Below, piece by piece: positions 3,065 through 58,649 of a stretch of DNA of 64,000 nt. Under the pieces are notes generated by a model. The model ran no database searches. It had not been told where the DNA came from and was given only the letters and a program-made list of their open reading frames with translations. The position numbers and the translations under genes are program-made. The DNA is from a bacterium. Its GTDB lineage: Bacteria > Patescibacteriota > Minisyncoccia > UBA6257 > JAGOQP01. The DNA lies in the NCBI GenBank assembly GCA_021780615.1, contig JAJXYJ010000022.1:809-64808 (forward strand), read 5' to 3'. Each line of letters opens with the position of its first letter. Positions within the stretch are counted from its first letter, which is position 1.

Positions 3065-4353
3065 ATCTCAGGTATATCAGAAAAAGCGGAATCAATCCAT
3101 TGCTCAAACGTTCCAATGTTGTTCTGTATAAGGAATAAAGGAGCTCCCTTTTGATATGCCGAATCGCCCATTGCAGCCAACTTCCCCTCTTTTTTTAATG
3201 AAACAAACTCTTCCATAAAAGAGGCGTACGCATCCGCATCATCGATACCAGCCACTCTGCTGAAGGAATTATCTAAATATTCAAGGTGCGCATTCCATAG
3301 ACGGGACCGGTGCGTAATAACAGGTTTTTTTGAAAGCATCGCTTCAGCTATGTTAAGCCCAAACGACTCCCCATCGGCACGAAAATGCGCCAACACATCA
3401 ATAGCAGCATAAAACGCCCACACATCTTCTTCACGAAAGCTCGGATCAAGAAAATGCACGTGGGGTATGCGTTCGTCCTCCACGATTTTTCTGAGAATCG
3501 GCGGCGGAGACATGATAAGATAATGTGCCTGGGGATATGTTTGCACAATTTTCTGAAACGCCCTGATGCCTATGGGATCAAAAATTCCATCATCAGCCCT
3601 TCCAATTCTTCCAAAAACTATATCATTGTCAGAGAGCCCCAGAGAACTCCGTAAACCAATCCCTCTCTTGAAAGAATCGGACAAGGGCCCCTCCGTTGGT
3701 ATATACATTACTTCAAGGCCCTTTTCTCCAACGTATTGAGAAACTCTTTTTTTAACCTCTTGGGAAATGCATATGCTCTTGGCGACATTTTTCTGGACCA
3801 ATGGCGATGCAAAAATATTAATCAGAATGATTGGAATAGCATTAATAAGATTAAACGGAAATTCGTTGTATCCAGATCCAGCCGTCACCAAAAGATCTAT
3901 GTTTTTTTCGCGCAGCACCTCAAAAACGGACGGACACATGCCATGCACCACATACGGATACAAAGAGTCCATGGAAGCATAGTCAAACTCAATAAGTTCA
4001 ACATCTCCGCTTTTCACATACTCAGCTCTCCCGTCCAGGCGAATACCTCCGGAACTCCCTCTGGGCTTAGGGGAGTACATGAAATACACATTATACCTTT
4101 CCTTATTCAGGTGCCTTGCTAGAATTTGCAGATTTTTTTCAGTACCACCAAAACTGAGTCCGGAAATATGGTAAAAAAGGATATTCTTTTTTCCCCCATG
4201 GGGCGTCGACACATAAGATACATCCTTTTTCTCCAAACGAAGCTGCTTTAGCGCCTTCCGTTTTCCCAATTGTTCACGCATGCGTACAACCATCCTCTTT
4301 AAAAAAAGAGGAAGACGTAAGAATATTTCTTTTGCAACGATACACATACTCAT
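3061..4353 (-). CDS. Glycosyltransferase family 4
   Basis: HFRADGESFGLNIAEAMLSKKPVI is a GT4 EX7E motif. Length is 430 aa. Confidence 0.6.
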   Translation of the reverse strand: MSMCIVAKEIFLRLPLFLKRMVVRMREQLGKRKALKQLRLEKKDVSYVSTPHGGKKNILFYHISGLSFGGTEKNLQILARHLNKERYNVYFMYSPKPRGSSGGIRLDGRAEYVKSGDVELIEFDYASMDSLYPYVVHGMCPSVFEVLREKNIDLLVTAGSGYNEFPFNLINAIPIILINIFASPLVQKNVAKSICISQEVKKRVSQYVGEKGLEVMYIPTEGPLSDSFKRGIGLRSSLGLSDNDIVFGRIGRADDGIFDPIGIRAFQKIVQTYPQAHYLIMSPPPILRKIVEDERIPHVHFLDPSFREEDVWAFYAAIDVLAHFRADGESFGLNIAEAMLSKKPVITHRSRLWNAHLEYLDNSFSRVAGIDDADAYASFMEEFVSLKKEGKLAAMGDSAYQKGAPLFLIQNNIGTFEQWIDSAFSDIPEI

Positions 4354-5285
4354 TTCAATATCTTGTTTTTTATATCGTTTGCCCGCACCACAATTGGATG
4401 AAATGTCTTTGCCTTTGGCTCGCGCCCAACTCGCCGCACGAATTCGTCATGGAGCTGGCGCACGTGCCATATCTGTAGCGGCTCAAAGAATCCGATGCCG
4501 TACTGATCGAACCAATCCAAAATCTGCTGTAAGTGCCAGGTGGGAGGAAGCGCATCCAAATGTTTAGGCAATTCTATTCCTTCAAGCCATCTTTGAGGAA
4601 CGGGCGTAAGATGCGTGTCCGGTACATCTAATGTTATGGAATAGGTATTATTAATACGTTGTGGACTTCTGTCGCCTTTTATTAATTCAACGCATCGATA
4701 CCACGCCTGTTTTATCTGCGCCCGTTCCCACGGTACAAATTGAAGATGGAGCAATGGGAACATTTCTTCCCGCACCATTCCGGTCCCCGGCCCGGGAACA
4801 CGGGTAGTATGGTCGTTTATGACAAATTCCCTTTTATAATCCATCTTCCTGTCATCCCAAAACGCTATTGGCTTATACGATTTTTGCCATGCTCCATCGC
4901 ACCGGTATCGGAACAATGATTTCCATAATTGCACCCAGTTGAATTCAAACAGAAATCCAGGCGATAATTTCCCGAGAAGATGGGGCAGTTCGTTCTGAAA
5001 AAATATCGGCAAAATGAATTCGTCCGCATCGAGGCAGAACACCATATTCTCACCATCAAAATCACGCGCCGCATCAAGCAATTGCCACCGCACCTTATTC
5101 GAATGCCCGGACTCCTTGTTGTCTATTAATACGACTTTGTGAAATTTTTTTATTATCTCCCTGGACCCATCGTTCGACATCTGATCCGCAATAATAATGT
5201 GGTCTGAAAAAATAGATGCGTTCTTCAAGAACGATTCCAATATCCAATCCTCATTTTTTGTCGGAAGAAGGGTAATTATTTTCAT
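4350..5285 (-). CDS. Putative GT-A fold (GT2-like) glycosyltransferase
   Basis: LLPTKNE...IIIADQMSNDGS...CLDADEF resembles the GT2 nucleotide-binding and DxD motifs. Confidence 0.4.
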   Translation of the reverse strand: MKIITLLPTKNEDWILESFLKNASIFSDHIIIADQMSNDGSREIIKKFHKVVLIDNKESGHSNKVRWQLLDAARDFDGENMVFCLDADEFILPIFFQNELPHLLGKLSPGFLFEFNWVQLWKSLFRYRCDGAWQKSYKPIAFWDDRKMDYKREFVINDHTTRVPGPGTGMVREEMFPLLHLQFVPWERAQIKQAWYRCVELIKGDRSPQRINNTYSITLDVPDTHLTPVPQRWLEGIELPKHLDALPPTWHLQQILDWFDQYGIGFFEPLQIWHVRQLHDEFVRRVGREPKAKTFHPIVVRANDIKNKILK

Positions 5286-16569: not shown

Positions 16570-17493
16570 TTATCTCCTCCCCTTCACCCTCAAAAACGAA
16601 TTCGGGCCTCCAGTGCCTACCCGCTCAATTAAACGCTGATCGGCAAGGGTTTTAATATCGTAGCGTAACGTGCGATCGCTGACGCCGGGAAGTACGGCAA
16701 TAATATCATTTATATGGCACATAGCCCGCTTCTCAATAACTGACATAATCAGCTTCTTGCGTTCAGTTGAAGTAAGCTGGCGCGCATCCTGATCTGCCTT
16801 ACTATAAATCTCATGAGAGGTATTGCCGGACTCACCCTCAAACATTGCCGGACTATCTTTTGCCGGACTCTGCTGATGCGACACCGCAGCTGAAGCAGTA
16901 TCATTGCCGGACTCCATATGAACAGCATATAACAATGCGCTGTTGTGTTGAGCAGACGGCATAACAGTATCTTTTATACTTCCGGAAACATTGGTAGCAG
17001 TAGGAGATACATGCGCGTCATCAAAAGCATTGTTGCCAGACTCAAAAGCAACATTGCCGGACTCCTGAGTATCGTTTGCCGGACTATTGCCGGACTTTTC
17101 AGACACATCGCGTAACAGTCTGGCAAAGTCAGAAAAGAGCATAGGAGGCTTTGAAAAAATGCTCTCAATGGTGTTTTCTGTACGCCGATGAAGTTGAGCG
17201 GCGGCGGCATCTTCGGAAACGCGCTGAATTTCTTGCAGTGCCGTACGCAAATTTCCCGTTTCACGGAGAATGACTTTGGTATTAATATCGTTAATTTCAC
17301 CAATGTGAGACCCCAACCGAATAACCTCTTCTAACTCATCCAAAGCAACCGCATCTTTAGCAGAAAGATAAGCAAGCGCCTTTGCCTCCAACACCTTTTT
17401 AAGATCTACACGTCCCACCGCATCGGCCACCCGAAAGACAGCCCATACGACCTCAAATGATCTCTGCTTAAAAAATTCGAGGGAGTAGTTCAT
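16570..17493 (-). CDS. Putative transcriptional regulator with C-terminal winged-HTH (DeoR-like) and an internal ESGN-repeat linker
   Basis: C-terminal MSVIEKRAMCHINDIIAVLPGVSDRTLRYDIKTLADQRLIERVG is wHTH-like. Internal repeats ESGNVAFESGNNAF...ESGND...ESGNTS are encoded by about six ttgccggact DNA repeats. Confidence 0.4.
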   Translation of the reverse strand: MNYSLEFFKQRSFEVVWAVFRVADAVGRVDLKKVLEAKALAYLSAKDAVALDELEEVIRLGSHIGEINDINTKVILRETGNLRTALQEIQRVSEDAAAAQLHRRTENTIESIFSKPPMLFSDFARLLRDVSEKSGNSPANDTQESGNVAFESGNNAFDDAHVSPTATNVSGSIKDTVMPSAQHNSALLYAVHMESGNDTASAAVSHQQSPAKDSPAMFEGESGNTSHEIYSKADQDARQLTSTERKKLIMSVIEKRAMCHINDIIAVLPGVSDRTLRYDIKTLADQRLIERVGTGGPNSFLRVKGRR

Positions 17494-17796
17494 ACAATGG
17501 TTTCACCATATACCCAACCCCCCACCCCGTCAAATAACAAGTTATCCACAGGGACATTAAAAAGACAGTACGGAAAAAAACAGTACAAAAAAGGACGGCG
17601 CAAAAAAAGACGGTACAAAAATATTTTACATTTTCTCCCCCTTGCATCTCATTCCATTTATATCTTATTTCCCCTTGCATCTTTTATTTTGTTTCACGCT
17701 CCCCGATTCATACTCCTTGTGTTTCACATTCTATTTTCTACTTCCTACTTTTTTATTTTCTATTTTTTACTCACCGATCCCCACCACTCCCTACTC

Positions 17797-17840
17797 CCTG
17801 CTCCCCTTTCCGTCCCGATCGGGACGGAAAGGGGAGCAGG
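17797..17840. promoter_or_regulatory. Perfect 44-bp palindrome centred on GATC in a divergent intergenic region
   Basis: cctgctcccctttccgtcccga|tcgggacggaaaggggagcagg is identical to its own reverse complement. It lies at the end of a ~330-nt G-depleted polypyrimidine tract (17500-17830). Confidence 0.5.
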
Positions 17841-18344
17841 AAAAACATCAACGCCACCGCAAACCACACCACAAACCATCCGTTAGAAAAAAATTATCAC
17901 GCTACATATATAAAGATGTTTTTGCTTTCGTGGATGAAACTATCCACAAAAACACCTTTTAGAAAAAATAATGGTGATATAATAAAAAAATATAAAAACA
18001 TACCATTGAATATTTGCATTGTATAAAAATTACGATGCTACTCATATTTTAAAAGCATGTCGATAAAACACTCACTATGAACCGGTTATCTCTACCATAC
18101 ACCATATGCGCCGTCGTAGACGCCACGTACTTCTTTAGCGCTTTATTTAAAAAGCACACATATCATCCTGAACCGTGGGATGATTTTTATTATCTATGGA
18201 AAACCTAATTCCTTTTAATGCTCTCATTATCACCACGCTTATGTGCCTGATCATAAGCAAACGCTTCCACATACTATAAATACACATGAACCATCACACC
18301 CACTAATAACCAATTACCATTAAAGAAACCAAATTCAAACATCT

Positions 18345-18887
18345 ATGATGCACTCCGAAGACCAATTATCGCCACCCGCACATACAGCAAGCCGCACACT
18401 CCTCATCTCTATTGCCATATGTGTAGGCATTATCGCCCTCAGTGTTGGCGCTCTATTTATATGGGGAAATTATCTCTCCCCCGAAGCTCAGAGCACCCAC
18501 ACCATGCAAAAGAATTATGAGACGTACCAAGTATGGGAACAGCAACACAATCAAGATCTCACCCTGGATACCTATGGAGGCACCACTCCCGAGGAAACTC
18601 TGCAACTATTCGTGGACGCACTTGATGATGAAGATATTGAACTCGCGAGTAAGTATTTTGTACTCGATCAAAGAGAACAATGGGCTGAAGGACTTAAAAA
18701 TATACAGCGAGAAGAAAAAATAGATGAAATAATAAATACTATAAAAAACGCACAAGCGTCAGAAAGAGATACTGGATCAGAAAACCAAAAGGAATTTGTT
18801 GTAAAAAATAAAAATGGTGAAGTAGATTACGCCATTATATTAACACTTAACAACCAATCAAACATATGGAAAATAGAAAGTATGTAG
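18345..18887 (+). CDS. Hypothetical membrane-anchored protein
   Basis: 180 aa with an N-terminal TM ([22 protein letters not shown]). Its stop overlaps the start of the downstream large secreted protein. Confidence 0.4.
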
Positions 18888-21800
18888 TCCTGCTTACGCT
18901 CATTGCAGGACTTTTTATTTTTCGAGCCACAGTTGCCTACGGATATACCACCGACACTCATCAATTTCTTACTGAAACTTCGGCGCGATTGTATAACAAC
19001 ACGTATACAAATGAACAAATAAATCAAACACTCATCCCCTTTCTGCTGGATGGCGCCCGAAGGGAAGACGACGCTCCCCGATGGATGAATCATTTTTATG
19101 ACCCAATACACGAAACGGGACTTACTTATAACGCAGCTATAGATCCATGGATAAACGTGGGTAATTGGCAAAGTGCAAAGCTGTGGGCACAAGACTCCGC
19201 AAATCAAACGGGACTCAAATACACCCCCGCCATTGCAAGCATTTTATCGTTTTTTGAAACGGGAACTATACAAAAATTCCTCCCCACGTCCGATTTTACA
19301 TGGAATAAGGCACTCACCTACTGGGTGCAAGGCGACAAGGAAATGGCAATGTTTACATTAGGACACGTCATACATCTATTACAAGATGTATCAGTGCCAG
19401 ACCATACCAGAAACGATCCTCATCCAGGAGACAGCCCTTATGAAAATTACACGGCACAATTTACGCCCAATCATCCCGATGTAAATACATACGCAAATGC
19501 CCAACAAAAAGGAATTACAGCACTTGCAAATATAAACGATTATTTTAAAGGATTGGCAACATACTCAAATAATAATTTCTACAGCAAAGATACTATAGGA
19601 CTACAGAGTGGCTATTCCTTGCCACAACCGGATAGTTATTCAAAAAGTAATGGTGGCAGAGAATATGAGATTGGTACAAATTCTGATGGCGACTATAGGC
19701 TCGTAATGAGCTTATCAAATAAAGGAAGTTTAGTATTGGGAAACACAAAAGCACTGACTATAGATGATGCAGGCATACAAAACGACTACTGGAAACTTCT
19801 ATCAACGAAAGCTACACAATATAGCGCCGGCCTTATGCATGCATTCATACAAGAGGCATATGCAAAAGAAAAAGATCCATCGTTTGTTGTGCGTCCCGAA
19901 TCGTCATTTTTGGGACAAATTGTCTCCACCGCACAAAATGCTTTTAACCAAGTAAGCGGTTTTATACAGACAACAGTATTTGGAAAACCCGCATTCAGCA
20001 CTGTTCAAGAAATTCCACTTACGCAACAAGATAACACCTCATCGGGCGCATCTGACACCACATTAAGCACACCATATAACGCACCAACACAAACGCCCCG
20101 CCCATCATTCGCCCCATCTACAACACTCATTCCCACACCTTCTCCGATATCATTACCCAAAACATCCACAACACCCGTACCAATACCAAAGTCGACCACA
20201 ACACCAAAACCAAATCCAACACCAACCCCAAAACCAACAGCTACTCCAAAACCGAGCGCAACGCCAAAGCCAACCACAACACCAAGTATACAAGCAAATC
20301 AAGCAACTCCGTCATGTGCTCTTTCGTATGCATCACCGACGTGGGGACCCGTTATATTGAGCGAAGTGGCGTGGATGGGAACAGCCGCAAGTACCGCTGA
20401 TGAATGGATTGAACTCAAAAACATAGGAGCTGCATCGGTGACTCTATCCGGATGGACCATACGCAACGAAAGCGGCAGTGTCGCCATCAACCTGGGAGCG
20501 GGAACAACAAAAACCCTATCCCCCGGGGAGCACATGCTATTAGAAAGAACGGATGATACGACGTTGCCCAACATAAAAGCGGACATTATATATACCGGCG
20601 CACTGGCAAATAGCAATGAAAAACTTCAACTCTTTAACGCATCGTGCATGCTCCAAGACGCCGCATACGCATCACCACAATGGCCCGCAGGAAATGCTTC
20701 GGAAAAAAGGACGATGGAACGAAACGGGGCAACACATGGCTGGTATAGCTCAAGCGTTATCGGCGGGACACCTCATGCAAACAATTCAGCAATCCCCACT
20801 CCAACCCCAACTCCAACCCCCGCGCCATCAAATGGTGGAGGCGGTGGCGGAGGTGGAAATACAAATCAAACCCCAACACCAACACCAACACCAAATCCAA
20901 CCCCGACCCCAACTCCATCTGCGTCGCCAACTCCTGAACCATCACCAACTCCAACGCCCACCCCTACACCATCACCATCACCAACTCCAATAGTACTGAC
21001 ATCCGGCGATATACGTATAACCGAGATTATGTATAACACTTCCGACGCCGATGAAGGAAGGGAATGGATAGAAATATATAATGCATCTCTGCAAAATATT
21101 CCCACAGAAACAATCCGCATTAATGAAGGAGAATCCCACCATTATATACACACCGCAAACGATACAGATGGCATATTGCCCGCAGAAACATACATCGTTA
21201 TTGCCAACAATCCAGAAAAATTTATGGCAGACTATCCATTTTATACCGGACAACTTTTTAAAAGCGCATTTTCACTGAGCAACGAAGGAGAAATAATACA
21301 GATCACCAATCAAGATACCATTTTAGATGAGCTGTCCTACACCAAAGACCAAGGAGCAAATGGAAATGAGAAAACATTACAAAATATAGACGGCACATGG
21401 TATGAAGCAACTCCCTCGCCAGGACGAGCAAATAGCATTAACGACATAGTACATACCGACACAGCAACATCGTCAGAGATGCTCACCAAAGAACCCCAAC
21501 AAGTCCATATAACATATACTCCTGCGACCGTCAGTATAACCGCAACATGGGACTACGAGCCGCACACCTACGACACAGAAATTACCTACACCGTACATGA
21601 CATGACCGATCCCGCACACGATCAGATATTAACAACAACCACCGATATCGCCGCTACCATACCACTACGCAGTGTAGGTACGACTTATCGTATTGGTGTG
21701 CAGGCAACACAAGAAGGAAAAGATCCTTCGCCAATAACCCCGCATGAAATACAGGTTCCCAGTTTTGTAAAAAATATAGCCTTTTATGATGCGGCACATC

Positions 21801-22651
21801 CGACGGCAGACATATTTTTTGATCACTACCCATTCATACCCAATGGCATTCAGGAAGCCCTCGGAAAAAGACTGATGGTATTTTACTACAACACTGATGC
21901 AGTGCCGCAAACAATAATTGAAGGAAGTATTTTTAACACTGGCAGTGCATGGGGTCCTGAAGCAATGCACAACCTCACCGATGTTTCATATAATTTTTGC
22001 AGAAGCGGATACGGATCACAGCACACACTCATTATGGCAGACGATCTAAATACCTGTTTTGGCACGGTGACACCAGAAAGCATTGACACAAAAGAACTAC
22101 GAATATTTCCCGAAACAAGCGCTCCCGAAAATGGTTCATTTCTAACCGTTGCATTCTTTACACTCACCCAATCAAACATCTGGAGTGGTGGAACGGAAAC
22201 ATACACGTTGTTAGCTGTTGATAAAACACACTATCCATTTTTATCAACTATCACAAAAATCCCACCAACTAATCCTGACATCCTATCCGTCACAACAACA
22301 CCAATAATCAATGGTACCGGTGGACAACTTTCATTGCGTTGGAGAGTAGCAACTGATCCTGATGGATACAACAATCACATCCAATATAGTATTGCCTACC
22401 ACCTCACATCAGATGGGAGTGAACCTGTATGGCAAGACATATATTGCACTCCTTCAGATAATGAATGCACCAACACATCTCAATACATACCAACACCAGG
22501 AACCTATACCATACTTTTACGCGCCCAAGATGAACAGGGAAAATATTCTGATGTTATAGAAGCAACCACCATCGTCCAAGACGATACACTAGTCGGCATC
22601 AATAGAAAAAACATTGCTATAACTATATGTGCACAGCATCAATATGTATAA
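18866..22651 (+). CDS. Large secreted multidomain protein. It has an N-terminal Zn-dependent PLC/S1-P1 nuclease-like domain, Pro/Thr-rich linkers, two lamin-tail domains (LTD) and C-terminal beta-rich (FN3/Ig-like) domains.
   Basis: Signal peptide [41 protein letters not shown] matches the H-x3-D-x3-P-x-H zinc motif of phospholipase C/P1 nuclease (compare HYLGDVNQPMH and HFIGDMTQPLH). Two LTD-like segments: [36 protein letters not shown] and [31 protein letters not shown] linkers. Confidence 0.55.
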
Positions 22652-23049
22652 AAAAGAGGCGACCTAAGGATCAATCAACGCTCGAAATTCTCACACTTCT
22701 TGCCGTGGCCCCTCGTCACACCCTCGAAAGTGAGACAATATTCTCCAAAAGTCATTACGGGATATGTGCACAGCTCCTCCATGTTGATTCGCGCGAAACA
22801 CACCTCGAACAAATTCTGAGGACACGGGAGTACAAAATAAAAGAAAGATTTTTCCGCATTGTCTATAAACTTCGCCAAGAAGGCATGATTGAAGCATATA
22901 ATCCGCACTCCCGAACAAGCATAACACTTACTCGAAAAGGATGTCGCTTCGTACAAAAAACGGTATCAAAAGAAGTATTTGAAAAGATGAAGGATGTCAT
23001 TGGGGTTAAGAAAATACCCTTGTCTTGCTACTCCATAAGCAATATATAA
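22627..23049 (+). CDS. Hypothetical small protein, possibly a winged-helix DNA-binding protein
   Basis: 140-aa ORF overlapping the end of the upstream gene. [15 protein letters not shown] is wHTH-like. Start is uncertain. Confidence 0.3.
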
Positions 23050-54279: not shown

Positions 54280-56070
54280 CTATTCGTACACAATGTACTG
54301 TTCATCCTCATCAGGAAGTTCTCCGCGATCAAAAAATACTTGTTGAGGAGGAAGTTCGTACAAGAATCGAGACGCTACACTATAAAAATGAAGTTGCAGT
54401 TCACGCCGTGCCCGTGTCATTGCCACATACATCAATCGGCGCTCTTCCTCGACGTCTTCTGGGGAAAAAAGCGATCGCTGATGAGGTAATGTGCCCTCAT
54501 TAACACCCGCAACAAGTACTCCATCAAACTCAAGTCCTTTGGCTACATGAATGGTCATTAAGTTAATAACCGGAACCCCCTCGTGCCGCTGAGCACTGCG
54601 CAACGACTGCGCATCAAGCGTATCAGCCAACGACACTCGTTCAAGAAACGATGCGGCGTCGGAAAAATGTTGTGCAAACGCCATGAGTTCCTGTATGTTT
54701 TCGGCGCGATCAGAGGCGTTATCATATTTTTTATCCAATCGATTCATAAAATCGGCGGCGGTGACAAACGCACGAAGAATATCCAAAGGGCGCGTCTCAG
54801 AAGTATAGCCGGACAACTTCTCCCGTACCGCGGCGGCGAGACGTTTGCCAAGATTTTTTTCCAAGCGTATAAAACTCAATGTGTCCTGCGGATTACACAC
54901 CATGCGCACTCCGGCAATAATATCTTTAATTTCTTGCCGATCATAGAAACTCACCGTCCCAAAGATCTGGTAGGGTACCTGGTGCTCAATGCACATCTGC
55001 TCCAACGCACGAGACTGTGCGTTCGTGCGATACAAAATACCCACTCGCATACCGCTCTTTTGCATGCGCTGAGCTTCATCCAATATGGCATCTGCTTGTG
55101 AAAATTCATCACGATGCTCAATGACGCGCACCGGTGATCCAATTTCATTTTCCGTCCACAAATTTTTCTTCTTTTGCACTTCGTTGTGCGCAATGAGCGC
55201 CGACGATGATTCAATGATTTGCTTCGTAGATCGATAGTTCTGCTCAAGCATAATGACCAGTGCCTTGGGCCATTCGCGCTCAAACTGTAAAAAATTGCGA
55301 AAATCAGAAAATCTGAATTTATAAATAGATTGTGCATCATCACCTACTACCATCACATTTCCATGTGATGCGGCAAGCAATTTTACCAAAAGATACTGCG
55401 CGGTATTTACGTCTTGATATTCATCAACTAAAATATAACGAAACATTGCTTGATATTTTTCTCGCGCCCCCGCATCATTGCGCAGCAACCACACGGGCTT
55501 ATGAATAAGATCATCAAAATCAAATGCATTATTATCTTTGAGCGCCGCTTCATATCGGGTAAATAAATCCCACACCGTTTCATCATGAGGACTCCGCACA
55601 TATGCCGCCGCATCTATATATTCACTTTTAATACGAGAAAATTGTCGCGCCAACGACGCAGGAAGAAGGTAGGGACTTTTAGGAAGATCTGCAACGAGTC
55701 GCTTAATAAGTCGTTGCGAATCATCGCTATCAAAAATAGAAAACGCATTTGTACGAGAAAATCTCTTTGCCTCATGGCGCAAAAGCCACGCACCAAAAGA
55801 ATGAAACGTTCCCACAAACGGATCACCCTCTCCCTTAAGGCCGTGCGATGCAATTAATTTTTCAACCCGCTCCTTCATCTCCCGTGCCGCCTTGTTAGTA
55901 AAGGTAATTGCCAAGATTGCCTGCGGTGGCACCTGTCGTTGAGAAATAAGATATGCAAGCCGCGCGGTAAGCGTTTTTGTCTTACCAGAACCCGCTCCCG
56001 CCACCACTAAAATAGGACCATCAGGAGCATACGCCGCCTCTCTTTGTTTATTATTTAAATCAGAATTCAT
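54280..56070 (-). CDS. UvrD/PcrA/Rep-family DNA helicase (short form)
   Basis: Motif I VVAGAGSGKTKTLTARLAYLI; DEYQD-type motif II (ILVDEYQDVN). Length is 596 aa. Confidence 0.75.
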   Translation of the reverse strand: MNSDLNNKQREAAYAPDGPILVVAGAGSGKTKTLTARLAYLISQRQVPPQAILAITFTNKAAREMKERVEKLIASHGLKGEGDPFVGTFHSFGAWLLRHEAKRFSRTNAFSIFDSDDSQRLIKRLVADLPKSPYLLPASLARQFSRIKSEYIDAAAYVRSPHDETVWDLFTRYEAALKDNNAFDFDDLIHKPVWLLRNDAGAREKYQAMFRYILVDEYQDVNTAQYLLVKLLAASHGNVMVVGDDAQSIYKFRFSDFRNFLQFEREWPKALVIMLEQNYRSTKQIIESSSALIAHNEVQKKKNLWTENEIGSPVRVIEHRDEFSQADAILDEAQRMQKSGMRVGILYRTNAQSRALEQMCIEHQVPYQIFGTVSFYDRQEIKDIIAGVRMVCNPQDTLSFIRLEKNLGKRLAAAVREKLSGYTSETRPLDILRAFVTAADFMNRLDKKYDNASDRAENIQELMAFAQHFSDAASFLERVSLADTLDAQSLRSAQRHEGVPVINLMTIHVAKGLEFDGVLVAGVNEGTLPHQRSLFSPEDVEEERRLMYVAMTRARRELQLHFYSVASRFLYELPPQQVFFDRGELPDEDEQYIVYE

Positions 56071-56293
56071 CGTGATACTATAGCATACATCATCATGTCA
56101 TAAAGCACATCATACACACACATCGCATAGCATCCACACTCTAAAAATTACCATCATTATTACCATCATCTCCACCATCATTATTATTATCATTATTACC
56201 ACCACCCCTACCACCATCATTATTATTACCACCACCCCTGCCACATCCATATACACCCCCTCACTCACACACACCATACACATACACCATATA

Positions 56294-56349
56294 TTCAATA
56301 TATTGAAGATAGTCTCAATTTCAAACGATCGTAAAAATTGAGATAATTT
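56294..56349. promoter_or_regulatory. Copy 1 of a ~58-bp direct repeat containing a 9-bp inverted repeat (tctcaattt-N14-aaattgaga); candidate operator/promoter element
   Basis: attcaatatattgaagatagtctcaatttcaaacgatcgtaaaaattgagataat. A second copy is at 56995-57052. The loop contains the palindrome cgatcg. Confidence 0.5.
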
Positions 56350-56368
56350 TTACAGATAATAAATGATG

Positions 56369-56950
56369 TTATTTATGTTGTTGAGTGTGGACATGTTTAT
56401 ATTGAAGAGTTCCCTTTCCCGACAACTCTATAATTTCCACATATTGAACAATGTCCAAATCACGCAAATGATGCAAAAAAGACGACGGTATTTTTGTGCT
56501 ACCAATCCACACACTTCGCCGAAGAAAGGTAAATTCCAAAGTCTTAAGCGCTTCACGTAGCCACGCCCTATATAATTTTTTACTTTCAGGAATATCAAAG
56601 ACAATAACAATGGGAGTCTTTGTATAACAAATATTATACGAACATTTTGGAAGCATATTTCTCTTTTTTGTAAAAAACTGTTTAATACATGCAATTCCTT
56701 TTTTTGTTATAGACATATCAGAAGAAAGTAAGCCATCTTTTCTGAGACGTGACGACATAACCGCGTATCGACGCTTTAATATACGAAATTCATCACCGTC
56801 ACCATAATCCCTACCACTCTCCTCGAGCGTATGTACATTCGCCCATAATTGACGCGTGGAACCAGCCGAAAAAAGAAACGCCTCAAAAGCACTTGAAAAT
56901 TTTCTACTTTGCACATTTTTTAAAAAATCAACCTTAGAAACCCTTCTCAT
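56369..56950 (-). CDS. Hypothetical protein with an N-terminal wHTH-like region and a C-terminal Cas2-like ferredoxin-fold region (PaaX-like architecture)
   Basis: YAVMSSRLRKDGLLSS is wHTH-like. IVIVFDIPESKKLYRAWLREALKTLEFTFLRRSVWIG...IVQYVEIIEL follows the beta-alpha-beta pattern of Cas2/PaaX C-terminal domains. The assignment rests on pattern similarity only. Confidence 0.3.
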   Translation of the reverse strand: MRRVSKVDFLKNVQSRKFSSAFEAFLFSAGSTRQLWANVHTLEESGRDYGDGDEFRILKRRYAVMSSRLRKDGLLSSDMSITKKGIACIKQFFTKKRNMLPKCSYNICYTKTPIVIVFDIPESKKLYRAWLREALKTLEFTFLRRSVWIGSTKIPSSFLHHLRDLDIVQYVEIIELSGKGTLQYKHVHTQQHK

Positions 56951-56994
56951 ACCATATTAAGTAAAAACATCGCCATAACATCATATTCATATAT

Positions 56995-57052
56995 ATTCAA
57001 TATTATGAACATTATCTCAATTTCAAACGATCGTAAAAATTGAGATAATGAA
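56995..57052. promoter_or_regulatory. Copy 2 of the 58-bp hairpin-containing direct repeat, immediately upstream of the 56369-56950 gene
   Basis: attcaatattatgaacattatctcaatttcaaacgatcgtaaaaattgagataatg. Confidence 0.5.
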
Positions 57053-57098
57053 AGATGGCTACTAAAAACCATCGTAGATAATAATTCTTGCCACATTA

Positions 57099-58649
57099 TT
57101 ATGCGGGCAGATTTGATGGCATTCGATATGAGAATGCTTCCTGTACACACACGTCATCAACAACATCTTTGTCGTCAATGTCAGCAATTGTCTGCGCTAT
57201 TTTAAGAAGCTTAAAATAGCCACGCGTAGAAACATGTGCTTGATCCAAAAGAACATCAAGCATTCGTTGCGCTGAAGGAGTCACACGCACACATCGAGTT
57301 GCATCTTTAGATGAAAGGCTCCCGTTCATTTGTGCATGCACACCAGCCATATCATACCGTGCCGCCTGTTTCATGCGCGCCGCGGTAACCCGCGCGCGCA
57401 CGTATGCTGACGTCTGATGATCATCGGTAATTGCCGCACGCAAATCATCCGAAGCAATTCGCCCAATCCACACATGTAAATCGATTCGGTCCAAAAGTGG
57501 TCCGGATATTTTTTTATGGTACCGAATAATATCATACGCACTGCATGTGCATGCTCGCTTATCATCTTGATAGTAACCACAAGGACAAGGGTTTGCCGCA
57601 GCCACTAAAAGAAAATCAGATGGAAACACCACTGTATTTTTTGATCGCGCAACATGTACTACGCGATCCTCAAGAGGTTGTCGCAATGACTCAAGAACAT
57701 CCCGATGAAATTCAGGAATCTCATCCATAAACAACACCCCTCGATGCGCAAGACTAATTTCTCCAGGACGAGGATTTTGACCACCCCCAACCAACGACAC
57801 CAATGAAGCACTGTGATGCGGCGCACGAAAAGGACGGCGAGTAATAAAAGGTTGTCCTACTAAAAGTCCCGCCGCGCTATACACCCCCGTAATCTCAAGC
57901 GCTTCAGCAAAAGAAAGCGGTGGTAAAATAGAAATAAGTGACTGTGCAAGCATTGTCTTTCCCGCTCCCGGGGGACCTGAAAAAATAATATTATGTCCTC
58001 CGGCCGCGGCAATAGTCAGTGCACGTTTTGCCGCATCATGTCCACGCACATCAGCCATATCAACTCCTCCAACATCTACCCCGGGAATAAAAGGCGATGC
58101 CTTACAGGCATCGATAGGATTTTTCCCTTCAAGATGTTCAATAAGTCCTCCGAGTGAATCTAATGGAATAATTTGTATGCCATCGATAAACGCAACCTCG
58201 GCACAATTGTGCCGAGGAATGTATGCCACCAAAAATCCTTTTTGGCGAGCCATGAGGCAAATATTTAAAATACCCGGAACGGGACGTACCGCGCCATCAA
58301 GAGCAAGCTCTCCAACAAAAAGAGCATGAGCCACATCGCTCTGTCCGATTTGTGCTGAAGATATAAGATATCCCAACGCAATCGCCACATCATGTAACGA
58401 CCCATTCTTTTTAACATCCGCCGGAGCAAGATTAACCGTTACGGTACGATTTTCACTCGTCGGTGGTTTACAGTCAGTATTTTTTAACGCAGCCGCCACA
58501 CGCTCCTTGGCTTCAGATACCGCCTTATCAGCAAGTCCAACGATAGAAAAAGAAGGGAGCCCCACATGCATATCCACTTCAACCTCAATAACACGAGCAG
58601 TAATCCCTTCAACTTCTGCAGAAAAAATTTTTGCGACCGCGTGACGCAT
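57099..58649 (-). CDS. comM: YifB/ComM-family Mg-chelatase-like AAA+ ATPase
   Basis: N-terminal Lon-like domain. Walker A GPPGAGKTMLAQSL. 516 aa with a C-terminal ChlI-like domain. Confidence 0.8.
   Translation of the reverse strand: MRHAVAKIFSAEVEGITARVIEVEVDMHVGLPSFSIVGLADKAVSEAKERVAAALKNTDCKPPTSENRTVTVNLAPADVKKNGSLHDVAIALGYLISSAQIGQSDVAHALFVGELALDGAVRPVPGILNICLMARQKGFLVAYIPRHNCAEVAFIDGIQIIPLDSLGGLIEHLEGKNPIDACKASPFIPGVDVGGVDMADVRGHDAAKRALTIAAAGGHNIIFSGPPGAGKTMLAQSLISILPPLSFAEALEITGVYSAAGLLVGQPFITRRPFRAPHHSASLVSLVGGGQNPRPGEISLAHRGVLFMDEIPEFHRDVLESLRQPLEDRVVHVARSKNTVVFPSDFLLVAAANPCPCGYYQDDKRACTCSAYDIIRYHKKISGPLLDRIDLHVWIGRIASDDLRAAITDDHQTSAYVRARVTAARMKQAARYDMAGVHAQMNGSLSSKDATRCVRVTPSAQRMLDVLLDQAHVSTRGYFKLLKIAQTIADIDDKDVVDDVCVQEAFSYRMPSNLPA

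Follow-up and report, generated by a model that had tools for sequence, protein, structure and literature searches.

What does a small gene do when the same palindromic repeat stands on both of its sides? The gene that raises this question lies in a 64,000-nt stretch of contig JAJXYJ010000022.1 from a Patescibacteria genome (the window, by which we mean the whole stretch analyzed), where it encodes a protein of 193 amino acids (aa) between comM and a helicase gene. Judging from sequence, the gene probably, if far from certainly, encodes a truncated PaaX-like protein that represses its own gene as a dimer through two cognate operators. The family to which it belongs, in which a winged helix-turn-helix (wHTH) domain is joined to a Cas2 fold, is apparently very large and undescribed; family-specific and broader literature searches found no published description of the family or of its palindromes.

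A direct repeat of 59 nt occurs twice in the window (56289-56347 and 56991-57049), with 54 of 59 positions identical (92%) and 702 nt from start to start. A preliminary description of this DNA had recognized the pair with its ends a few bases off (56294-56349 and 56995-57052) and reported a 9-bp inverted repeat with a 14-nt spacer; 9-nt arms are present in both copies, and the spacer measures 13 nt. Both copies include an identical 31-mer, TCTCAATTTCAAACGATCGTAAAAATTGAGA, at 56313-56343 and 57015-57045. With up to 3 mismatches allowed it has exactly 2 matches in the 64 kb against 0.00 expected (100 shuffles), which rules out a chance repeat. The upstream copy has perfect 14-nt arms (57010-57023 and 57037-57050) around the center ACGATCGT. 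The inner stem of the window palindrome is asymmetric and broken and the outer arms alone are perfect, a pattern that would be expected of an operator. In the closest ortholog locus, L006, the upstream copy is 95% conserved in sequence and forms a perfect palindrome of 38-40 bp. In the downstream copy, a 34-nt core agrees at 34 of 34 positions between the window and L006, with substitutions in both flanks; this contrast between kept core and changed flanks shows, at the level of sequence comparison, purifying selection on the core.

The preliminary description took the protein for a DNA-binding wHTH domain fused to a ferredoxin-fold domain resembling Cas2 or the C-terminal part of PaaX. Pfam, AlphaFold2 and Foldseek agree with this architecture, and the second domain is PaaX-middle-like. 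Residues 115-179 match PaaX_M (PF20803, "PaaX central Cas2-like domain") with an E value of 3.5e-11 and 43.5 bits against a cut-off of 24. This is the sole Pfam match of the protein (there is none to the PaaX N-terminal or PaaX_C models) and it recurs in all 32 of 32 homologs. The AlphaFold2 model (32 homologs; mean predicted local distance difference test score, pLDDT, of 85) has a helical N-terminal domain and a beta-alpha-beta-beta-alpha-beta C-terminal domain. Foldseek places E. coli PaaX (8A39) at the top and, after it, a run of Cas2 structures that have probabilities of 0.9-0.99, and the fold matches include the N-terminal winged helix. The protein ends ~15 residues past the Cas2-like domain. 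Across the family alignment, conservation is found in the Cas2-like half, and the N-terminal half varies. The profile of the C-terminal domain contains an invariant motif (a hydrophobic strand, then FDIPE...R...LQ-SVW) that can be aligned, beta-1 aspartate included, with the Cas2 signature in 3EXC and 6JHZ: D119 is invariant in the family and aligns with the Asp of YDV/FDL in those two structures. E. coli PaaX apparently has Ser/Glu at this position in what is a poor alignment, and hhalign against E. coli PaaX gives a probability of 2.8%, which is uninformative for the Cas2-like part. From sequence and model together, the closest description would be a truncated PaaX whose second domain still resembles a true Cas2.

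The likeness to Cas2 and VapD consists of the ferredoxin fold with the conserved beta-1 aspartate. The window protein differs from Cas2 in that its domain is fused to a winged helix, it scores below the Cas2 Pfam and PADLOC thresholds, and neither cas1 nor a CRISPR array is near the gene (no Cas1 Pfam match within +/-10 kb; nothing array-like by Tandem Repeats Finder in the 64-kb window). Some family genes are mislabelled "CRISPR-associated endonuclease Cas2". Matches to NDUFA6, obtained when the C-terminal half was compared with the PDB by phmmer, were spurious. A role as a defense-system component was also rejected, as the window protein has no PADLOC match and its relatives match Cas2 and winged-helix models only weakly.

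PaaX, the phenylacetyl-CoA-responsive repressor of E. coli and Pseudomonas (PDB 8A39, 3L09), is the closest solved two-domain relative. The window protein is shorter (193 versus 316 aa) and lacks the C-terminal helical domain that binds the aryl-CoA effector (PaaX_C), but it keeps the Cas2 motif FD-IPE...SVW, which is apparently missing in E. coli PaaX (again in a poor alignment). The sites also differ from those of PaaX, being palindromic throughout, with a CGATCG center, and bracketing the gene on both sides, and in the DNA sampled the family is found in Patescibacteria alone, where it is expanded. E. coli PaaX represses its own promoter: it binds TGATTC-N27-GAATCA and keeps RNA polymerase out (PMC9493321). 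The span of this operator is similar to that of the window site. An operator at the gene's own promoter is PaaX-like, and the window layout is consistent with binding and repression.

We scanned for relatives with one genome per species and confirmed 188; the loci described here are the best 80 of the 188, and sites were counted over 85 non-redundant family loci. The best 80 are all in Patescibacteria-type genomes, often with several paralogs per genome. An exhaustive profile search gave 5,444 clusters at 50% identity with E <=1e-3 (2,900 with E <=1e-10), and the proteins of the best 150 clusters are nearly all 185-215 aa long. Orthologs of 88% (L006), 67% (L009) and 47% identity (L007 and L008) have a palindrome on both sides of the gene, and a 40% ortholog (L010), whose contig is cut at the 5' end, has the downstream palindrome only. 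These palindromes have a common center and different arms: CTGACATTTCCTG-ACGATCGT-CAGGAAATGTCAG in L007, CTCACAATTCAAA-ACGATCGT-TTTGAATTGTGAG in L009 and GTTACAATTTA-ACGATCGT-TGAATTGTAAC in L010.

Throughout the family the palindromes are 30-50 bp long and each gene has its own arms. Under a strict threshold 36 of the 85 loci have the palindrome on both sides and 27 on one side; under a relaxed one the upstream palindrome is found in 69/85 and the downstream one in 66/85. Paired palindromes are spaced 613-805 bp from center to center. A census of loop-less palindromes with at least 13 pairs in 909 kb of family loci returned 160, among them 92 with a CGATCG center; most others have CGGCCG, CGGTCG or CGACCG. 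About 90 of the ~110 CGRYCG-centered palindromes adjoin a family gene, and such regions make up ~12% of the DNA examined. The two copies around one gene share their arms, and paralogs within the same genome have different arms. The genes on either side are diverse, unrelated housekeeping genes. The site pair belongs to the family gene, independent of the neighboring genes. A conserved functional partner was considered and rejected, the only recurring neighbor being a Xer-like integrase, found in 6 of 70 loci and traceable to one syntenic group. Several ortholog groups keep the same gene context across several genomes, as under vertical inheritance. The center variant tends to follow the genome and not the paralog: CGGCCG is found in L055, L089, L079, L074, L075, L082, L084 and L038, where most others have CGATCG. 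Lineage-wise co-evolution with the conserved domain may explain this, as may a host factor, for example a methyltransferase.

Paired copies are similar up to the edge of the palindrome and for a median of 2-3 nt past it. In the window the repeat extends 21 nt past the palindrome, on one side, and takes in the -10-like box, and this extension is kept in L006. Because the similarity of family copies ends at the palindrome edge, the extension appears to be a peculiarity of this lineage. Recent promoter duplication was rejected as a general explanation, since across the family the two copies have only the palindrome in common. The preliminary description had proposed looking for further copies of the element. 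The 64-kb window holds no third copy, but extra copies of the same cognate palindrome lie 1-5 kb off, mostly intergenic, in the loci of seven relatives (L012, L015, L027, L042, L043, L048 and L059); relatives have no more than 4 cognate palindromes per 12 kb. Some palindromes have foreign arms, one of them in the window. A loose pattern scan of metagenomes returned at least 120 stretches, nearly all chance-like; among the matches listed, L139 is the only two-site locus, with sites 634 bp apart, a CGTACG center and a distant family gene between them.

The position of the upstream copy points to a promoter. In ~17 loci the palindrome center lies 29-36 nt before the ATG, with TTGACG at the center, a spacer of 17-18 nt, TAnnnT in the outer right arm and the ATG ~7 nt further on, a spacing that appears to be a leaderless-gene layout. 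A -10-like box just past the arm on the gene side is found in 37/58 upstream copies, against 13/57, 18/57 and 24/58 on the other three sides. These matches show that the upstream copy overlaps the gene's own predicted promoter across the family, the classic layout of autorepression. In the window, the promoter-like TTGAAA-16-AATATT (57026-56999, minus strand) overlaps the right arm of the upstream copy. The downstream copy rarely has a -10-like box; it is present before a convergent next gene in 22/28 cases and before a co-directional one in 29/46. Since it is present whatever the orientation of the next gene, the downstream copy belongs to the family gene and not to the neighbor, and in the window it appears to be a family-wide hallmark and not a device aimed at the helicase. 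The operator pair that the preliminary description suggested is plausible on these grounds, with the palindrome conserved on both sides of the 88, 67 and 47% orthologs, recurring across the family, and its upstream copy over a predicted promoter. A similar TATAGT-like -10 spacing is found before many family genes and before the helicase in all lineages examined, which suggests that leaderless transcription may be common in these genomes.

In the mechanism that we propose, the Cas2-fold domain beside the DNA-binding winged helix would form a homodimer, by analogy with PaaX and Cas2, and the dimer would bind a dyad-symmetric site of 30-40 bp. The variable N-terminal winged helices would read the gene-specific outer arms (in the window, ATTATCTCAATTT) and the conserved Cas2-fold dimer would sit over the family-wide CGATCG center. 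This assignment of domains to parts of the site is suggested because the N-terminal half and the arms are both variable and the Cas2-like half and the center are both conserved. When domain C is controlled for, arm similarity correlates weakly but significantly with N-domain identity (partial r 0.12, permutation p 0.008), a correlation confounded by phylogeny. With the upstream copy over its own promoter, the protein would repress its own transcription. The downstream copy would be a second cognate operator that closes the transcription unit and might serve cooperative binding or looping over ~700 bp, a roadblock or an insulator. Dimerization, binding, the sharing of arms and center between the two domains, repression and any function of the downstream copy are all inferred.

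Genomes of the Patescibacteria, or candidate phyla radiation, are tiny, with few regulators that can be recognized, and experimental genetics hardly exists for the group. If the autorepressor reading is true, the family, which comprises no fewer than 5,400 clusters at 50% identity, would be a major lineage-specific set of DNA-binding regulators. Each member's cognate site would be readable from the genome, since the gene is bracketed by it, yielding thousands of natural protein-site pairs. Possible uses are a recognition code for winged helices, regulon prediction in uncultured bacteria, and orthogonal repressor/operator parts. A Cas2 fold reused beside a DNA-reading domain with its signature residues intact would also bear on the origins of Cas2 and PaaX.

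Several observations weigh against this reading. The family proteins evolve much faster than their neighbors, at 49% identity versus 83% for the adjacent Xer-like protein. The inner palindrome is imperfect in the window itself. The promoter call in the window, made from consensus matches alone, would imply a leader of 20-40 nt and not a leaderless start. The invariance of the Cas2 hallmark residues hints at a possible role beyond dimerization. A simple repressor leaves unexplained the second identical site after most members' genes, including those before convergent genes. Finally, plain dimer binding does not predict compensated symmetry that includes the inner spacer. Between sister copies, 83 of 92 two-arm changes are compensated, beside 44 one-arm changes; an unbiased test, with copies found by one half only, gave 55 compensated, 23 uncompensated and 15 other changes. 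Selection for a hairpin or cruciform would predict compensated symmetric changes. The perfecting of quasi-palindromes by template-switch mutation is an established bias, and such mutation could yield the symmetry without selection.

The symmetry bears on the suggestion that the palindromes are protein-independent hairpins (terminators, RNA-stability or replication-related elements) that are adjacent to the genes by happenstance, which we regard as highly improbable. Many copies do have a stop codon a few to ~40 nt away, typical members are very stable (for example -15 to -27 kcal/mol as DNA), and symmetry is held by compensated changes. But hairpins give no reason for shared arms around one gene, private arms among paralogs and a common CGATCG center, nor for the concentration of CGRYCG-centered palindromes beside family genes, and of the window palindrome only the outer arms remain intact, its inner stem being broken. 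A T-run follows only 9/58 downstream and 3/60 upstream copies, too few for an intrinsic-terminator role, which we rejected; the intrinsic-terminator scan of the window region found a separate comM hairpin only and not the palindromes. Mismatches in the palindromes have no strand bias (G.T 41 and 48 versus A.C 39 and 37), so the symmetry is a property of the DNA and not of the sense RNA. An RNA-level element was rejected given the lack of sense-strand wobble bias and an Rfam search of the window that gave one tRNA and nothing else, with no match at the palindromes. Avoidance or enrichment of a restriction site was rejected as well, CGATCG occurring 13 times in the window against ~10.6 expected. 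Control of the adjacent UvrD/PcrA-like helicase, and possibly of comM, by a dedicated regulator acting through the downstream copy would be compatible with autoregulation, and we consider it rather unlikely. In its favor, the best sigma-70-like match of the region (TTGAAA-16-TATATT, 56324-56297, minus strand; 10/12 matches) is in the downstream copy and faces the helicase, and the 21-nt extension with its -10-like box is conserved in L006. Against it, the site is ~220 nt before the helicase ATG, behind a simple repeat of variable length; helicase orthologs of ~60% identity lack both the gene and the palindrome; the neighbors across the family are unrelated housekeeping genes; the downstream copy is as frequent before convergent as before co-directional genes; and comM has its own terminator-like hairpin, upstream of the element. 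The helicase also has TATAGT 6-7 nt before its ATG in the window, L006, L091, L092 and L094, that is, in lineages with and without the gene and its sites. As TATAGT is kept in all helicase orthologs examined, the helicase would have its own proximal promoter. The control of helicase or comM that the preliminary description envisaged is thus not supported by these comparisons, the sites going with the wHTH gene; an extra regulated transcript toward the helicase from the promoter-like match in the downstream copy is possible.

A different kind of explanation, which we consider unlikely, is a selfish or invertible cassette driven by its own enzyme. The winged helix would find its private palindromes and a Cas2-like metal site would nick or cut the CGATCG center as duplex, hairpin or cruciform, making it likelier for the unit to be inverted or excised, to spread or to be replaced. 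Palindromes found alone would then be scars or satellite sites, like REPs around RAYT genes. The invariant FDIPE...R...SVW, aligned with the Cas2 signature through the beta-1 aspartate, fits such an enzyme, but in real Cas2 the aspartate is dispensable for the scaffold role in spacer acquisition. The sites are at once direct and inverted repeats; each is its own reverse complement, and therefore recombination between copies can invert or delete the gene. One inversion is seen: at the Xer-like/tRNA-Leu site, L033 has the family gene in the opposite orientation to that in L018, L026, L030, L052 and L061, with the same neighbors, and a non-orthologous family member is present there in L082. A single inversion can, however, come from ordinary recombination between 40-bp inverted repeats. 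The absence of the unit from the comM-helicase junctions of distant relatives (with a different small gene there in L091 and L094), the fast evolution of the gene relative to its neighbors, the several divergent paralogs per genome with private sites, and single copies that keep symmetry by compensated changes also speak for a cassette. On the other side, no genome sampled has near-identical copies at different sites, there is no target-site duplication and similarity stops at the palindrome edge, several ortholog groups are stably syntenic, no relative was found on viral contigs, no transposase, recombinase or defense model (Pfam, PADLOC, PHROG) matches, and the upstream site overlaps a promoter, as a regulator needs. 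The preliminary description's insertion cassette holds in that, compared with distant relatives, the gene and its sites form an indel, and fails in that the repeats are not insertion scars, the similarity of paired copies across the family being limited to the palindrome. Still less probable is the wider claim that the units are a minimal, orientation-independent DNA cassette of a new kind, in which a wHTH-tethered Cas2-fold enzyme acts on the CGATCG core of its private palindromes, by nicking, by recombination or by cleavage of a hairpin or cruciform, and drives inversion, replacement and diversification; if true, the Cas2 fold would be linked to site-specific DNA transactions beyond CRISPR. 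An origin from phage or plasmid was rejected, with no relative on viral contigs and no useful PHROG match.

The Xer-like/tRNA-Leu site (L018, L026, L030, L052 and L061; ~4.5-6.8 kb in each locus) has the order Xer-like gene, palindrome, family gene, palindrome, tRNA-Leu. Family proteins there are 33-58% identical and the Xer-like proteins 62-83%, and the site is rearranged in L082. At the nucleotide level, a family gene is 76% identical where its flanks are 80-91% identical.

Known systems share parts of this arrangement with the autorepressor that we favor. RAYT genes with REP/REPIN sequences are single-copy genes flanked by cognate palindromes, with sites and protein diversifying together and extra copies elsewhere; RAYTs are homologs of HUH/Y1 transposases, and REPs occur in tens to hundreds of copies. 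The family genes are likewise flanked by cognate palindromes, with extra copies near some of them. The window protein, however, is not a HUH Y1 transposase (it matches only PaaX_M and has wHTH and Cas2 folds). Within the DNA covered, the site is present in 2 copies in the 64-kb window and in up to 4 within 12 kb in relatives. Repressor genes that have their own operators around or at the gene include lambda CI, where OL and OR are looped together, and B. subtilis RTP, whose own promoter has Ter sites. The likeness lies in a small dimeric DNA-binding protein, sites flanking or at its own gene, autoregulation, and site specificity that diverges fast between relatives. The folds and oligomerization differ, and each flanking operator in those systems controls a known outward promoter, whereas the downstream copy here is usually without one. 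Integron cassettes consist of a single open reading frame (ORF) bounded by imperfect palindromes of ~60 nt (attC, "59-base elements") with R''/R' GTTRRRY cores. The window unit is also one ORF bounded by ~60-nt imperfect palindromes; unlike integrons, the window has no integron integrase, and its sites lack the R''/R' GTTRRRY cores, are the same gene-specific site on both sides and overlap a promoter. Insertion sequences and miniature inverted-repeat transposable elements differ in that the window unit has no transposase, no target-site duplication and no identical copies seen at other sites.

The neighboring genes, helicase and comM, are as the preliminary description had them (Table 1), and together with the 193-aa gene and KsgA they are all on one strand. 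Around helicase orthologs of ~60% identity the gene order glycosyl hydrolase, comM, helicase, ksgA is retained. The comparison with relatives that the preliminary description proposed found the helicase locus without the gene and its sites in these ~60% relatives (L091-L094). In L092 and L093 the helicase directly follows comM with a 163-bp gap and no palindrome. The gap in L091 and L094 contains an unrelated conserved gene of 172-173 aa on the opposite strand (4346-4864 and 4341-4862, minus strand), with no precomputed Pfam match. The comM-helicase gap appears to take different small genes in different lineages, and the 193-aa gene with its sites and the variable simple repeat appear to be an addition in one lineage.

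Table 1. Coordinates of the features around the 193-aa gene (positions in the window)
Feature	Position	Strand	Details
193-aa gene	56369..56950	-	N-terminal winged-helix and C-terminal Cas2-fold/PaaX_M domain (ORF and Pfam)
Upstream copy of the 59-nt repeat	56991..57049	-	dyad-symmetric site, short TTCA-N6-TGAA element and -10-like box on the gene side
Downstream copy of the 59-nt repeat	56289..56347	-	31-nt core at 56313-56343, perfect TTCAATATATTGAA palindrome, promoter-like match facing the helicase
G-poor simple-sequence tract between downstream element and helicase	56100..56290	.	4 G/191 nt
TATAGT, conserved, putative proximal leaderless-type -10 box of the helicase	56077..56082	-	6 nt before the ATG (56070); read from sequence
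Helicase, short, PcrA/UvrD-like	54280-56070	-	ATG at 56070
Terminator-like hairpin directly 3' of comM, ahead of the upstream element	57054..57073	-	comparable hairpin and T-run after comM in L092, which lacks the gene and its sites
comM (YifB/ComM-type ATPase)	57099-58649	-	

The G-poor tract was called unusual in the preliminary description. It consists of a degenerate tandem repeat (periods 12, 24 and 39 nt), and its longest G-free runs are 109 and 64 nt. L006 (the 88% relative) has a tract shorter by 77 nt, and L091, L092 and L094 lack it. Small ORFs within it (46 aa and hydrophobic, or Gly/Asn/Asp-rich, depending on frame) were dismissed, as they are not kept in L006.

The locus around the 193-aa gene, L001 (contig DAIEGZ010000028.1), has an RVT_1 reverse-transcriptase gene and a TraC-like gene at 1-320 and 20406-20582, ~10 kb to either side of the gene and its sites, which hints at mobile-element content in the wider region.

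The palindrome with foreign arms in the window is a perfect one of 48 bp, TCCCTGCTCCCCTTTCCGTCCCGATCGGGACGGAAAGGGGAGCAGGAA (17795-17842), with a CGATCG center; folded as a DNA hairpin it has -27 kcal/mol. The arms bear no relation to those of the pair at 56.3/57.0 kb, and no family gene adjoins the palindrome. It sits in an 850-bp divergent intergenic region between 16570-17493 (minus strand; a DeoR-type HTH match) and 18345-18887 (plus strand), and is presumably the site of a paralog encoded elsewhere. A 140-aa ORF at 22627-23049 (plus strand) matches the family profile over the N-terminal winged-helix part only (E 5.6e-8). It is directly 3' of a 1261-aa protein with Lamin-tail domains, has no palindrome adjoining and ends where the Cas2-like domain should start; it appears to be a truncated paralog or a winged-helix-only relative.

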